Counted from the stretch's first letter, positions 6,090 through 19,042 are shown. The stretch: DNA of 20,529 nt from a virus (IMGVR_UViG_2974655256_000001:1-20529), one strand, 5' to 3'. Notes: generated by a model from the letters alone, not told the origin. Translations and numbers: made by a program.

Positions 6090-7406
6090 TTATTTCCCAC
6101 GGGAAATTGAGTAAATTCCATAACGCAGTGCGTCACAAAGGTGAGAGTTTGCATCATGACGTGGTTTTTCACGTGATAATTTCTCTTCGCCTTCCTGGAA
6201 GTCCCACTTGTAGTTCGCTAGGGCGTGGATCAATGAGGTACATGAAGCATCTACGATGATCTTACCTTGCTGGAACAGTGCTTGCAGGCATGCCAAACCA
6301 TCTAGGACAGATTTCTTAGCAGGAGCAGAAGCGATTTCATGTTCATATGCTAAGTCCTGACGGAACTGAGCAGCAGCGGAGTCTACAAATATACGATCAA
6401 CATTATAACGATCTATGCAGTGTTGGATATAAGCAGCATGTTGGGCTGTAGTCTTTTCAGCCTGCTGATACTCTTCCAGTACGTAATAAACATCAGTATC
6501 GTAGTGATACTTAATTGTAAGAACTGCTGTAGGATCACGGTAACCAACGTCAATGCCAAGCAATGTTTCGAATGCTTCATCATCTTTAAAGAAGTGACGC
6601 ATACCTTTGAGATCTTTAACATGGTCGATGGCATTAAAGGTATCGAAGATCTGACCTTCGAATACAGAGAAGTCAGCCTCATATTCCTGGCGGAAGTAGT
6701 TTTTACTAACTGTACGACGTGCTTCCTCAATGTCATTCAGGTCAGCACGAGGGTTATCACGATATGTACCATGAATAGATACCCAGTTAGGCAACGTATC
6801 ATCAAATCCGTAGGCGTAAAATTCTTTAAACCAGTTACCTCCACGAGGAGTAGAGATAAATAGAGCCTTAGAATTAGGTTTATCTAGGGTAGGACGCAAC
6901 TGAACTCTAAAGGCATCACCACCTACATCAGAAATTGCAGCCTCATCAAAGATGATAAAATCATATGAACGTCCAACTGCGGAGTCGGCCTGAGCCGCGG
7001 AAGCTAGTTTAAATAGAGAACCATTAGCTAACTCAATCTCTTTATCTTTAGCGTTCTCACGTTCGGTTTGTAGGCCATATTTTTTAATAAGACCACGAAT
7101 CTGAGACCATCCAATGTTGGCCAGTGAGTAGTTAGGGGCAACTACTAGCACCTTCACATTAGGTTCCAGCAATTTTAGGAACCCAAGTGTATATGCTATA
7201 AAGGACTTGCCTACACGGCGTGACACACACGCCGTTACAAAACGATGTCTAGGATCCTCTAAAGCATTGATGATTGCTATTTGAGGACCATTAGGTGTAA
7301 TACCTTCTTGTGCTAGTATTCCCGAAACAGGTAGGCGAAAGAAACGTTTGTCTATTCCGAAATCAATAACATCTACTGTGTTAACGTAGGGTCTTGATAC
7401 TTCCAT
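6090..7406 (-). CDS. terL: Terminase large subunit, 438 aa
   Basis: Walker A SRRVGKS, Walker B FIIFDEAA, motif III FISTPRG, RNase H-like GIDVG and C-terminal HLCDALRY. Confidence 0.96.
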   Translation of the reverse strand: MEVSRPYVNTVDVIDFGIDKRFFRLPVSGILAQEGITPNGPQIAIINALEDPRHRFVTACVSRRVGKSFIAYTLGFLKLLEPNVKVLVVAPNYSLANIGWSQIRGLIKKYGLQTERENAKDKEIELANGSLFKLASAAQADSAVGRSYDFIIFDEAAISDVGGDAFRVQLRPTLDKPNSKALFISTPRGGNWFKEFYAYGFDDTLPNWVSIHGTYRDNPRADLNDIEEARRTVSKNYFRQEYEADFSVFEGQIFDTFNAIDHVKDLKGMRHFFKDDEAFETLLGIDVGYRDPTAVLTIKYHYDTDVYYVLEEYQQAEKTTAQHAAYIQHCIDRYNVDRIFVDSAAAQFRQDLAYEHEIASAPAKKSVLDGLACLQALFQQGKIIVDASCTSLIHALANYKWDFQEGEEKLSREKPRHDANSHLCDALRYGIYSISRGK

Positions 7407-7898: not shown

Positions 7899-9656
7899 TT
7901 AGGTAAGGCGTTGAACTGTTACTCTTAATCTAGGTAGAAAAACTGCACTATCTAAACTTACGTGCATAACTACCCCTAACTCTACATTTCCGTTCCCCAG
8001 ATTTTTAGCAGTGTATATAAAACTATTTCTACTTAGGGCATTGTTAGGTGTGTATCTAAAAGCAGATGTAGTATGAAAAGGTACTAAATATCCTACTGGT
8101 AGTGTTAAAATCTGGTGGAATATCGCGTCTCCACTACTATAACTATATGCTCTTCTTCCTTGCACTTGAAACACACCGTTATTCCATGTATTAGCAGGAA
8201 CACCTGCACAGTTAAGATTACCTGATATAACTTCAGTGGTAAGAATTACTGTAGCATTGCCACCCGGTATACCTAGCCCAATAGTTGATAAACCAACGTA
8301 TCTATCTCCTGTTCCCGGGTAGCTAGGAGTAATATCATCTCCCATATAAGAACTACCTACATTTCCACCAAAAAGTCGTAATGGAACTGCTGAAGGCCCC
8401 CAAACAACCCCGTGTTCATTACCGATAGTATTATCATTAGAGTTTACGTACCATTGCTTACCAGCTCCGAATTTGTAAATACTAATTTGAGACTTAGCCC
8501 CTCCATAGTCTACAGGAGACCATAAACTCCCGTTACTAGAACCTACAAGTTCACACCTTGCAGTGGTATCTCCAAAGGCCCCAGTGTACGCTGCATTATT
8601 TCCAACATATTCCATATCTGGTCTATAACCTAAGTTACCAAAAGCGTTCTGGTTAATAAACTTGTATCCAGTATTGGGAAGACTAACCCCTTTAATTATG
8701 AAATTAGAAGGAGATATAAGAATATCTGAACCAGTAAAAGGATTACCAGAGATACTCATACCACCATTTGAGTATCTTAAATTCAGAACATACCAAATAA
8801 CTTTAGTAGGGGTTATGTTATACCAATCCTGTAATATTGTAGCGTTACCAGATTGGTTAGCTAAATTAGTTGTAGACCCCCTACAAACAAATCTGTTACC
8901 TCCATCATGATACATAGTATTTACATTACCTGGGAGCCCTTGTCTAACTCCACCATATCCACGTATATTAGAATTGCAGACATAAAACCAATCATGCCCT
9001 CTATGCGCTGCTCCTAGAGGCGACATCCATCCGGGATCCCAATAGTACGGGTTATTCCCATCTACAGGTACTGTGCTACTATTAGTAGGGAATCCTAACT
9101 GTGCAAAAGCTTCTGCAACAGTAATACCTACTGGAGCTCCTGCACCCGGCCTAACTATACCATGATACGTACTATGTAAGGTAGTACCCCCTGTACCATT
9201 TCTAGAGATAGATTCTTCATGTCCTATAGATGGGTTATAGTTATATGTTCCAGATGCCAGGCTATTACCAAATGCAAATCCACTAGTTTGGGAAACGCTA
9301 GCAAAAGATCTAAAGGGGTCTGCTTGAGTAGCAACTATAGTTTGACCTACCTTACTCTGAGTACCATTAAGAAAAGCCCTATGAGTACCATTAATCTCAA
9401 TAGCAGTTAGTATAACTCTACCTGGGTCATTAGATTTAATATTTATTATGTCAGAGGGCATCTGACATACAAAAAACCCATTTCCAGCATCACCTAACCC
9501 AGACTCATAAGTACCATCAACTAGGACAAATGGCATATCACTATGAAAAATACTATTGGTATTTGGACTATAGTGACGATTAATGTCACCACCAGATTCA
9601 GTATTTAAAGATAGTACGGTCTTACCATCGCTATATTTTCCAGCGAAAAAACCCAT
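7899..9656 (-). CDS. pb5: Receptor-binding protein, pb5 family, 585 aa (probably not the FhuA type)
   Basis: MGFFAGK...IFHSDM N-terminus, [12 protein letters not shown] core and VQRLT C-terminus align with recalled T5 pb5, while the middle is divergent. Divergent from llp as in all T5-likes. Confidence 0.9.
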
Positions 9657-11493: not shown

Positions 11494-12228
11494 TTACGCA
11501 ACTTTTAATTTCTCAATATATTGTTGCGGGCTGCAACTATATTCTGCGCGTTCTTCCTCGGTCATACTTTCCCAACATAATTTCAAACGATCAGCTAGGA
11601 ACTGATAATCATTATCATCATCGAGAGATTCATCAATAAAGGTTTCACCTATCAATGCCACGCCGATTGATAGAATATCATTAATGGCTTGCGCGTCCAG
11701 CGTTTTAAACCCGTATGATGCCGCTGCTGATAATACACCTTTATGATCATCAATCATCGTAAAATCAGCGTTCGGATATAGCTGTTTAAATAATTCAAAA
11801 TAATATGATTTATATATTGCGTCCTTACTGTGGTATATCTCGCTAACTTTATCAGCCTCAAAATATTTGTGTAGTGTATCGCGGGAAAATACACGGATAT
11901 TACTATCCCCACGCCCTCGCAATCCTTGTTTGCGCAAATAATAATAGTCCGACTTGCTCATCAGTCGAGCGGTGCAAATAATGTTTAACGTACTAACATC
12001 ATTCATGCACTGGCGCATATATGTAACAAGCGGCAATAGTGTATCTTGCATTATTAAATCATGTTTACATGCTTCATTTTTATACTTATTTAAATCTAAA
12101 TTGCCCTCGCTATCAAAGCAAGGCGCTACGCGATGGAAAGAATTAATGATAGTGCCGTCCAGATCCCAAATCATGACGCGGGAAATATGCGGGAAATTAC
12201 GGGTAATATTCGTTTTAACTTGATTCAT
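11494..12228 (-). CDS. dmp: Deoxynucleoside-5'-monophosphatase, HAD family, 244 aa
   Basis: HAD motif I WDLDGT, motif II CTAR, and a C-terminal MIDD; first pre-early gene of T5-likes. Confidence 0.92.
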   Translation of the reverse strand: MNQVKTNITRNFPHISRVMIWDLDGTIINSFHRVAPCFDSEGNLDLNKYKNEACKHDLIMQDTLLPLVTYMRQCMNDVSTLNIICTARLMSKSDYYYLRKQGLRGRGDSNIRVFSRDTLHKYFEADKVSEIYHSKDAIYKSYYFELFKQLYPNADFTMIDDHKGVLSAAASYGFKTLDAQAINDILSIGVALIGETFIDESLDDDNDYQFLADRLKLCWESMTEEERAEYSCSPQQYIEKLKVA

Positions 12229-16543: not shown

Positions 16544-17041
16544 ATCGTCGATTCCTTATAGTATATATAAGTTTACCGCCGATAGGCTTTAAGATATACC
16601 CAATTTTTAAAGAGCGCGGCGGTAAACTTCCCGCCGTGTAGTTCGTCATTGCCGCCCTACGAGATAAATAATAGGGGATTCCCGAAAATGGCGCAACCTT
16701 ATTTTTGTAAAGAAACGTAAAGACAAAATTCACCTCACCACGTCCGGCGACGGCCTAAATTAAAAGAAACGGGCGCGCGAGTACCACAAAACATAGCAGA
16801 TAGGCAAGTAATTTTTTCATTTATATTTGCTTTGCCCTACTTGACAAAATCTAAAAAGCTCGTGGCAGCGATAAACGGCTTATCCCTTTATGATTGGATG
16901 GCTAAAACTTTCATCGCGTTCTAGGGCGTTTTAGGCGGCTTATTTTCGACTTAACAAATCATTAACAACCGCAAAATTGAAAAATAGTTGTAAAAGGTCT
17001 TGACTTTTAAAAATCAAGACTAAATGAGTTAATTTATAAAA

Positions 17042-17566
17042 TTAATTAATTGACTGTTTAAATTCTTCTCTTTTTTGTTCTAACCATAATAATAACGTAT
17101 CTAAATCATAACCACATTTACTAACTTTTTTCTTAGTAATAGGATTCGTAATTTGAGCACGCAAATAATCACGGCCTAAACTATCACGCGGTCGCTTTTT
17201 ATCATAGTAAATATTAGTAGGCAAACCATTAGCACGTAATTTATAACCACGGTTACTAATATTCTGCAACTGAGTAGCTAGGCATAAGTTTTCAATGTTA
17301 TTATTTTGCCTGTTACGGTCTAGATGGTCGATTGTTAGATTGCTATCTATTTCTTTATGAAATAATACCCATATGATACGATGTACTGCGTATTCTGAGT
17401 TATTAATAGTTACGCGATAATAATCACCGGTACTAATATAACCAGCAATATCCCCAGCTTTTTTATTACCCTTATCAACTTTCCACCTTAGAAATGATGG
17501 CGATGTTTCATCATAATAAAAGTTATCATTAGCAAGCTCATATTTTATATCTTTATATTTACCCAT
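17042..17566 (-). CDS. Free-standing HNH endonuclease, 174 aa, in the divergent control region
   Basis: VHRIIW...TIDHLDRNRQNNNIENLCL; aligns end to end with the 169-aa HNH; AAGGA SD. Confidence 0.88.
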   Translation of the reverse strand: MGKYKDIKYELANDNFYYDETSPSFLRWKVDKGNKKAGDIAGYISTGDYYRVTINNSEYAVHRIIWVLFHKEIDSNLTIDHLDRNRQNNNIENLCLATQLQNISNRGYKLRANGLPTNIYYDKKRPRDSLGRDYLRAQITNPITKKKVSKCGYDLDTLLLWLEQKREEFKQSIN

Positions 17567-17605
17567 AATATAGTTTCCTTATGCTATTAGTTTAATCTCT
17601 ATTAT

Positions 17606-17614
17606 ATTATATCA
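17606..17614 (-). promoter_or_regulatory. Extended -10 promoter candidate for the HNH gene
   Basis: TG-A-TATAAT about 40 nt upstream of the ATG; no -35 match. Confidence 0.5.
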
Positions 17615-17673
17615 AAATAGTTAGCAGACTACCTAATAAGTTTTTACTGTAGTGAGAACCACTATCATTTAAG

Positions 17674-17766
17674 TTATCCACAAGTTTATTAACAGCATTT
17701 TTTGACTTGACACAATAGGAAGGATTTACAGCACTTTTGCACAGAGTTATTCACAGGTTATCCTAC
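17674..17766 (+). promoter_or_regulatory. DnaA-box cluster
   Basis: TTATCCACA (17674), TTTTGCACA (17735) and TTATTCACA (17747) fit TTWTNCACA. Degenerate copies are TTATTAACA (17686) and TTATCCTAC (17758). All have the same orientation. Confidence 0.7.
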
Positions 17767-17783
17767 TGTATAAATATACAGGG
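17764..17783. promoter_or_regulatory. LexA (SOS) box
   Basis: TACTGTATAAATATACAGGG versus the E. coli consensus TACTGTATATATATACAGTA: intact CTG-N10-CAG, 17/20 identical. Confidence 0.75.
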
Positions 17784-17824
17784 TAAACGGATAGCATATT
17801 ATATGGATGTCGATTTTAAGGCAT

Positions 17825-17904
17825 CTAGAACGCTCTATAACGCGCTTTCTTGCTGGTGGCCTTATTAAAGTAAAGCCAGTTTTAAGCGTTATACAGCGTT
17901 ATAG
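17825..17904. repeat. Inverted pair of 10-bp-spaced GCGTTHTAS dyads
   Basis: CTAGAACGCTCTATAACGC (17825-17843) and GCGTTATACAGCGTTATAG (17886-17904) pair with 2 mismatches. A third dyad is at 16916-16934. Confidence 0.65.
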
Positions 17905-17969
17905 GAGTAAACGCGCGATTAGCACATTTTTAGCAATTGGGCAAGGAAAATAAAAAGGTAAAATAAACG

Positions 17970-17999
17970 TTGCCCCTAAAAAGAAAATACGTTTATCAT
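17970..17999 (+). promoter_or_regulatory. Promoter candidate for the rightward pre-early operon
   Basis: A-rich UP element, TTGCCC, 18-nt spacer, TATCAT, about 30 nt before the GGAGG-preceded ATG at 18032. Confidence 0.55.
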
Positions 18000-18031
18000 T
18001 CTTCTACCGATTAACGAGGGAGGCCGAACAA

Positions 18032-19042
18032 ATGAGGCTATATAAACCAGATAACGCAACCGTCTTAAAAGGTGCATTGCGCAACCTGCTGGACGGTAGC
18101 AAGTCAACCAGCATTAAACATTTTATTAACAAGGCTGAAACTATTCATCAAAACTTTTTTGATGACTATGACGCCTATGATATGGATGGTTTTTTGCCAT
18201 TATACAAGTATGGGGCAACGCTAGTTTTATATAATCGGGATTGCCATATCTTTACGGGCAGGGGAGCGGGGCCGGATACCGATTTTATTATTGCGCAGGG
18301 TAATAATATTGTTGCGTATCATAGCAATTCAGGCCGTCAATCATTTAATATAAATGGTTTTGAGCTTATTGGGCTTGATCTGATAAATGGACTTTCTAGC
18401 ATTGAGGGATTTTTAGATGTTATCTGGAAGTATTTACCCGCTGGATGGCATAAGCCGGATAACGACGGATCTCAATATACTGGTATAATGGCTTTTGATG
18501 GCGATGGTAATTTTTTGTTACCTTCGAAATTATACCCGTATGTTTATAATGATCTGATAGAAGAAGCCGGGTTTTCTTTCTGGAAAGATGAAGATCAGAT
18601 TATTGACAGCGTAGAAAACCATGCTGTAAATTCTAACACTCAAAGCGTTAACACTCAAACTACTGAAAACAAAGGAAAAAACACCATGACCAAGATTGCT
18701 AACATCGTTGCCGCTAATAAATCCGCCGTTGTTAACGCTGCTAAACTGGAAGCGGGTAAAATTGCACTGACTCAAATCACAAAAGTAGCGGCGAAAAAAG
18801 CGCCGTTTATGATTAAAGGTTATATTGATACTCCGATTGGTCGCGTAGTGATCGCTAACCTGCTGAGTGTAGCGGTTGACCAGTACGCCCCGACTAATGC
18901 GAAAGCTAAAGCGGTAGCAGGCGCGGCAATGGAAGCGGCAATGTTGGAAATGGTACAGAGTTTCAATATTGCGGAAATGATCGATGAAATGGTAAAAGGT
19001 ATTGACATTTCTACTTTTACCACTAACACCGAAAGCGAGTAA
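18032..19042 (+). CDS. Pre-early hypothetical protein, 336 aa (T5 gene 10 position), with a possible internal start
   Basis: GGGAGG SD; first rightward FST gene; two parts separated by an N/T/S/Q linker. Confidence 0.85.
   Translation: MRLYKPDNATVLKGALRNLLDGSKSTSIKHFINKAETIHQNFFDDYDAYDMDGFLPLYKYGATLVLYNRDCHIFTGRGAGPDTDFIIAQGNNIVAYHSNSGRQSFNINGFELIGLDLINGLSSIEGFLDVIWKYLPAGWHKPDNDGSQYTGIMAFDGDGNFLLPSKLYPYVYNDLIEEAGFSFWKDEDQIIDSVENHAVNSNTQSVNTQTTENKGKNTMTKIANIVAANKSAVVNAAKLEAGKIALTQITKVAAKKAPFMIKGYIDTPIGRVVIANLLSVAVDQYAPTNAKAKAVAGAAMEAAMLEMVQSFNIAEMIDEMVKGIDISTFTTNTESE

Follow-up and report, generated by a model that had tools for sequence, protein, structure and literature searches.

We describe a site in the first-injected DNA of a T5-like phage that is predicted to bind LexA, the SOS repressor of the host. 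The DNA analysed (IMGVR_UViG_2974655256_000001:1-20529; 20,529 nucleotides, hereafter the window) carries on its minus strand a 16-mer, CTGTATATTTATACAG, that is, judged from its sequence, a high-quality LexA operator. This predicted operator forms the inner terminal palindrome of a 131-bp cis-acting module, which we consider likely to serve as a docking element for host proteins and not as a gene-specific promoter. The site is a known element, inverted repeat D or palindrome D of phage T5, with an apparently unreported identity as a putative host LexA operator.

The original prediction had read this stretch as a LexA-repressed promoter of the kind found at the E. coli recA gene, aimed at a neighbouring HNH endonuclease gene. 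Its three elements, TTTACC, the 16-mer and TAGGAT, are indeed present on the minus strand at the spacing described, and the two hexamers are of the quality that had been given for them (Table 1). The 16-mer has the arms of a gammaproteobacterial-type LexA operator, with CTGT and ACAG in inverted orientation and 8 bp between them, and 15 of its 16 bases agree with the core of the LexA operator consensus TACTG(TA)5CAGTA (PMC6590174). The extended 20-mer of the window, CCCTGTATATTTATACAGTA, has TA flanks and an AT-rich spacer and matches this consensus at 17 of 20 positions; the corresponding 20-mer at a second copy of the box in the same genome, TACTGTATAAATATACAGTA, matches it at 19 of 20. The CTGT-N8-ACAG core occurs only once in the 20.5-kb window, and shuffled windows contained 0.18 matches on average; because 17 of 100 shuffles also yielded at least one match, the lone occurrence is not significant in itself. 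The weight of the predicted operator lies in its AT-only spacer, the identical second copy in the genome and its conservation across genera. A third match to the core, CTGTTCAAACATACAG, is found at positions 81184-81199 of the phage genome, far from the terminal repeat and with GC in its spacer. It is probably a chance occurrence, about one being expected per 110 kb.

Table 1. Features in and around the 131-bp module (positions in the window unless phage-genome coordinates are indicated)
Feature	Position	Strand	Remark
131-bp module	17781-17651	minus	equivalent of T5 IRC-spacer-IRD (Repeat Region 2), by alignment
LexA-operator-like 16-mer CTGTATATTTATACAG	17781-17766	minus	CTGT-N8-ACAG core, AT-only spacer
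Proposed -35, TTTACC	17787-17782	minus	4/6; outside the conserved module
Proposed -10, TAGGAT	17765-17760	minus	4/6; inside the conserved GGATAA context
DnaA box TGTGAATAA	17755-17747	minus	1 mismatch to TGTGGATAA
DnaA-type box TGTGCAAAA	17743-17735	minus	3 bp past the TGTGAATAA box
DnaA-type box TGTTAATAA	17694-17686	minus	distal pair
Consensus DnaA box TGTGGATAA	17682-17674	minus	distal pair
Inverted twin module	phage genome 21645-21775	opposite orientation	3.9 kb rightward, in the candidate injection-stop region
HNH endonuclease gene, hegG-like, 174 aa	17566-17042 (ATG 17566)	minus	Pfam HNH_3 PF13392, E 5e-15
Promoter of the HNH gene	17614-17601	minus	extended -10 TGATATAAT (17614-17606) and overlapping second TATAAT
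Promoter-like TATACA-16-TATTAT	17775-17802	plus	9/12; -35 inside the LexA box; T5 and the present phage only
First gene of the rightward pre-early cassette	18032-19042	plus	T5.011 homologue, DUF7566

By alignment, the region corresponds to part of the left terminal repeat of T5, between hegG and T5.011, an interval that lies at the centre of the first-step-transfer (FST) DNA. A 1.1-kb query (window 17000-18100, from the 111,601-bp virus record) is 97% identical to the Salmonella phages Stp1 and VSe12, and T5 itself carries the identical 16-mer. In the T5 record AY587007, the box (6137-6152) makes up the final 16 bp of the annotated inverted repeat D (IRD; 6112-6152), and its partner copy, with which IRD' begins in Repeat Region 3, bears the annotation palindrome D (9330-9349), the 16-mer being the core of the palindrome. 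The annotation of Repeat Regions 2 and 3 of T5 comes from AY587007 (Wang et al. 2005). Davison (bioRxiv 10.1101/866236) compared the 131-bp IRC-spacer-IRD and IRD'-spacer-IRC' repeats in 25 phages, described DnaA-box pairs with a 3-bp separation and proposed that the eight DnaA boxes of both repeats form the injection stop signal. The same work names PalD as one of the palindromes that might be cleaved under a restriction-enzyme hypothesis, and it describes 'type 4' phages, which possess the Repeat Region 3 copy only. The words LexA and SOS are absent from that preprint, which treats the 16-mer as a repeat end or palindrome only. A 2023 paper on BF23 contains neither LexA nor an SOS box, and a 2026 PNAS paper none of the terms LexA, SOS or recA; both describe the region as functionally untested or poorly understood. 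A literature search for T5 or T5-like phages in connection with LexA or an SOS box returned nothing relevant.

The module of the present phage is virtually the same as that of T5. It starts with the LexA box and continues after 10 bp with a DnaA-box pair of 12-bp period, a 52-bp spacer and a second DnaA-box pair, so that 131 bp hold four DnaA-type boxes in two pairs with 3-bp gaps; the DnaA boxes that had been placed in the path of the postulated promoter's RNA are real. As in T5, the site lies between divergent pre-early units, and the module has an inverted twin about 3-4 kb rightward within the terminal repeat. The identical second box occupies phage-genome positions 21645-21660, 1.1 kb past the end of the window. 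The two copies are homologous from the box onward, whereas their upstream flanks are unrelated (...ccgtttacc versus ...gcaggaata). The rightward pre-early cassette has a LexA box at either end, the two boxes turned towards each other and their DnaA arrays lying on the sides away from the cassette; the twin faces 1.5 kb of non-coding repeats. The present phage differs from T5 in that its HNH gene is 83 bp closer to IRC. Comparison of window positions 17567-17650 with T5 (locus L001, 3066-3230) places these 83 bp between IRC and the hegG promoter in T5 only; because they are missing here, the junction of the HNH insertion differs between the two phages.

Several further motifs were observed around the twin. 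A DnaA-like site, TTATTCAC(T/C), lies 11 nt upstream of the Repeat Region 3 LexA box in the orientation opposite to that of the DnaA pair (locus L007, 1480-1488) and is shared by the Repeat Region 3 copies of T5, Eps7, Gostya9, SP15 and Shivani; with this site on its inner flank, the Repeat Region 3 box is bracketed by DnaA-type sites. Within the CATTCTCATT-type repeats that adjoin the twin on its right, a 19-mer (L007 1704-1722; phage genome ~21848-21866) shows two mismatches to the Fur-box consensus GATAATGATAATCATTATC. A second Fur-like 19-mer with two mismatches to this consensus is found at window positions 11604-11622, ~620 nt upstream of dmp. FhuA, the receptor of T5, is Fur-regulated. 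A search of both module regions against Rfam gave no family match, and the sole match in the downstream repeats, to PrrF, was sub-threshold (25.6 bits against a gathering score of 90).

Next we analysed the conservation of the module, which is present in 538 phage records, mostly at two places per record and at four when both terminal repeats are included. With either the window or the module of a Vibrio phage as the query, matches in the distant Klebsiella and Vibrio phages start exactly at the first base of the box. A profile was made from 26 module copies of 15 phages belonging to Tequintavirus, Epseptimavirus, Sugarlandvirus and Pogseptimavirus, together with unclassified ones; these were found by similarity to the module, so that lineages that lost it are under-represented, and gene conversion between inverted copies may inflate identity within a genome. 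The CTGT arm is intact in every one of the 26 copies and the ACAG arm in 23 (the exceptions being two CCAG and one ACAA), and the spacer consists of A and T alone in 25. The first DnaA box of the adjacent pair shows 94% identity; the second, at 86%, is less conserved than the LexA arms. Outside the module, mean identity falls to 58% over the six bases of the proposed -35 and to 59% over the 24 bases beyond them. A further sample, anchored on the DnaA pair and hence unbiased for the box, added 10 unique T5-like loci, all of which carry the box, nine with perfect arms and one, a UViG, with CTGG. (A first IMG/VR anchor, CCTTCCTATTGTGTCAAG, was too specific and matched only T5 itself and one contig.) Degenerate or single copies are tolerated in places: NBEco001 has one module, with ACAA, and Kpn24-P3 and KKP_3711 each have one CCAG copy.

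At the locus of the Vibrio phage, only one module, the Repeat Region 3 copy, is found within 5.5 kb on either side. The A2 protein of this phage is 39.5% identical to that of the present phage, whereas the box is identical at 15 of 16 positions. Such tight constraint on the LexA-contact bases while the phage proteins drift suggests that the site is read by a conserved host protein, and a docking site for host LexA under purifying selection is the best reading of the box, as a prediction. The two central bases (window 17773-17774) read TT or AA in each of the 36 copies, and a palindromic centre, TA or AT, does not occur among them. TT and AA are each found in both module positions, and the single-step intermediate was never seen. 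The box thus occurs in either orientation, which fits a symmetric site for a dimer and not an oriented promoter element.

In Sugarlandvirus (KpGranit, L010 1874-5516; Spivey, L020 2553-6018), the pre-early cassette lies between its modules in the orientation opposite to that seen in T5 and Eps7: the homologue of T5.011 (DUF7566) is on the A2 strand, and the inner flanks of the LexA boxes are swapped between the two module positions. The arrangement resembles the outcome of an inversion during evolution, with recombination inside the 131-bp inverted repeats.

The constancy of the box also bears on the possibility that the palindrome is bound by a protein of the phage itself, such as an A2 dimer or an A1/A2 complex, and is maybe even a cleavage site, its likeness to a LexA operator being coincidence or mimicry. 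Any dimeric binder would suit a palindrome, PalD has been listed among candidate cleavage sites, and second-step transfer needs both A1 and A2 (Davison, 10.1101/866236). Against this, the half-site agrees with the LexA consensus at all seven specified positions, AT spacer included, and the motifs conserved beside it are likewise sites for a host protein, DnaA. Moreover, nothing would keep a phage protein from co-evolving with its site, yet the site remained nearly unchanged while A2 diverged to the extent described. We therefore regard a phage-encoded reader as quite improbable. Still harder to credit, and in our estimate very improbable, is a purely structural or recombinational box, that is, an inverted-repeat end, a small cruciform or a hotspot of cassette inversion that LexA does not read. 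The end of homology between the inverted copies exactly at the box and the inverted cassette of Sugarlandvirus would fit such a function. However, the 7-bp AT stem would make a very weak hairpin, the arms are kept at the Vibrio locus with its one module in the 5.5 kb on either side, and structure alone leaves the LexA-consensus sequence unexplained.

A predicted LexA operator still left room for the promoter that the original prediction had built around it: TTTACC and TAGGAT as -35 and -10, a start near 17753, and an RNA that crosses the DnaA boxes and provides SOS-induced expression of the HNH endonuclease. In E. coli recA, the LexA box fills the 16-bp spacer between the -35 hexamer TTGATA and the -10 hexamer TATAAT. 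The phage element shares with recA the CTGT-N8-ACAG box with its AT-rich centre and the geometry of hexamer, 16-mer and hexamer, and several phages of Tequintavirus and Epseptimavirus likewise have TTTACC or TCTACC together with TAGGAT at their Repeat Region 2 copy. In other respects the two differ. The recA hexamers match consensus at five and six of six positions, those of the phage at four each, giving 8/12 in total. In a scan that required at least 4/6 per hexamer, A at position 2 and T at position 6 of the -10, and a spacer of 16-18, sites this good occurred about once per 260 nt of strand in the window, and TTTACC-16-TAGGAT is not listed in a 9/12 promoter scan of the window. Nor is the -35 conserved: its place is taken by GGAATA in the twin, and by GAAATA or AAGGTA in the phages of Klebsiella and Vibrio. 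The -10 is replaced by TGGAAT in T5 and TGGTAT in a Vibrio phage, both of which have lost the key A at position 2. The G at position 3 of TAGGAT, on the other hand, is present in 26 of 26 module copies, and GGATAA is nearly invariant, a pattern that suits a DnaA-type site better than a -10. TAGGAT therefore looks like the TA flank of the LexA 20-mer followed by the start of a degenerate DnaA-type site, GTAGGATAA, which is phased at 11 bp to the DnaA box that follows (the period of the pair being 12 bp).

The HNH gene is equally hard to reconcile with such a promoter. It has a promoter of its own, with the extended -10 TGATATAAT 40 nt upstream of its ATG; in T5 the identical TGATATAAT falls inside an annotated promoter feature (AY543070, 5938-6012 complement). 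The expected co-occurrence of box and HNH gene fails, because the box with the same flank is carried by at least eight phages that have no HNH gene at this locus (Eps7, Gostya9, SP15, CitS1, NBSal003, KpGranit, Spivey and KKP_3711), and an HNH gene at this position has been described as an insertion found in few T5-like phages (Davison, 10.1101/866236). Furthermore, the phage element is, in contrast to that of recA, duplicated and independent of any downstream gene, the twin facing non-coding repeats. The HNH gene is, on this evidence from sequence, a later insertion with its own promoter and not the predicted target of the box, and a LexA-repressed, recA-style HNH promoter is very improbable. 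Of the earlier claim, the near-consensus LexA operator stands, and the promoter aimed at HNH does not; the local reading is corrected in that the box does not serve its neighbour.

Other promoters might overlap the box, in which case it would be the LexA operator of one of these, and part of pre-early transcription would be tuned by the SOS state of the host. The plus-strand site at 17775-17802 is also present in T5, and CitS1, SP15, Shivani and NBSal003 have, at the Repeat Region 2 copy, a TTAACA-16-TATATT (10/12) that points leftward and whose -10 falls within the LexA box. However, no single arrangement is kept across copies or genera: the promoter-like sites that overlap the box are weak or lineage-specific only, and neither the twin nor the only copy within 5.5 kb on either side at the Vibrio locus has a usable -35. 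In addition, the AA-centre orientation of the box converts TATATT to TATAAA, and the TATA-rich LexA consensus yields -10-like hexamers automatically. We consider this use of the operator unlikely. The TTAACA-16-TATATT loci (L013 3205-3232, L017 5486-5513, L021 5982-6009 and L022 3947-3974) all belong to HNH-less phages; the arrangement is absent from T5 and the present phage, where that flank is replaced. A strong TATAAT just upstream of the box on the minus strand was rejected as a real promoter, as it has no usable -35 at 16-18 bp, is missing from the promoter-scan lists and lies in a stretch specific to T5 and the present phage. In T5 RNA-seq runs, available as assembled contigs that are mute on starts, strands and levels, the entire 4-kb stretch is covered by one contig in each run; a search of the literature for a map of T5 transcription start sites found none.

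The DnaA part of the module has parallels in bacteria. A 22-nt anchor covering the DnaA pair matched phased TGTGGATAA arrays in MAG contigs of unrelated bacteria (L048-L052: Cyanobacteria, Competibacteraceae, Synergistia, Vulcanimicrobiota and Poribacteria), and these arrays are presumably replication origins. The 11-12 bp phasing of the phage module is likewise origin-like. None of the matched arrays, by contrast, carries a LexA box: the scan of genome contigs with this anchor returned DnaA arrays only and no chromosomal source of the composite. Within T5, the replication origins map elsewhere, and the replication genes have yet to enter the cell during the FST stage (Davison, 10.1101/866236).

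A host LexA operator on a mobile element is in itself familiar. LexA-controlled modules include the tum promoter of coliphage 186, rstA of CTXphi and the colicin operons, and in such temperate phage and plasmid modules each operator overlaps a defined promoter, from which a gene is driven upon SOS induction. The present phage, in contrast, is obligately lytic, and its site is paired, non-coding and placed beside DnaA-box arrays. A LexA operator in an obligately lytic T5-like phage is unusual, as had been pointed out, and the accompanying idea of host sensing or binding is reasonable. The site is, moreover, kept in a phage from a recA1 host: both boxes are retained by the T5-like phage ESCO30, for which E. 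coli DH5a is the recorded isolation host. DH5a is recA1, and LexA is therefore not cleavable there. It follows that neither LexA cleavage nor SOS induction is required for growth, and any SOS input would be modulatory. An SOS-sensing switch for a single gene is probably not the function of the site.

Taken together, the evidence favours a module that would act as a host-protein docking element on the first-injected DNA. Upon entry of the FST DNA, a dimer of host LexA, of which a cell contains ~1,300 molecules (PMC6590174), would occupy each box beside a DnaA oligomer. Our best guess as to the role of this arrangement, which we hold with no more than even confidence, is that it forms a boundary or anchor of nucleoprotein and takes part in handling the first-injected DNA, pausing or anchoring it at the border of FST and second-step-transfer (SST) DNA, a function already proposed for the DnaA boxes (Davison, 10.1101/866236). 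The Repeat Region 3 copy, which lies at this border, is the one that stands alone at the Vibrio locus, within 5.5 kb on either side, and in the 'type 4' phages, and this favours handling of FST DNA over gene regulation. Some observations count against the docking role. Certain phages manage with a degenerate or a single box copy. LexA is not membrane-associated and has no obvious part in an anchoring by DnaA at the membrane. The nearest promoters, the extended -10 of the HNH gene and the plus-strand TTGCCC-18-TATCAT of the cassette, are ~150 bp and ~190 bp away, which leaves a classical repression of known promoters unexplained.

How T5 injection halts at 8% and then restarts has been a question for over 50 years. 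In phages that range from those of Vibrio to those of E. coli, a near-consensus predicted LexA operator edges the candidate stop module, at both copies where two are present. LexA would thereby become a second host protein beside DnaA in the existing hypothesis, and one that is easily manipulated, as lexA(Def), lexA3(Ind-) and recA hosts are viable and dnaA nulls are not. It is conceivable, if distinctly doubtful, that LexA and DnaA, perhaps with Fur, are working parts of the T5 two-step transfer checkpoint, in which LexA dimers on the two facing boxes would contribute to a nucleoprotein block or anchor at the FST/SST border, and A1-dependent breakdown of host DNA, through RecA activation and LexA cleavage, would help to time the release of this block. 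If this were true, a lytic phage would use the SOS repressor of its host as a structural timer, dispensable but advantageous.
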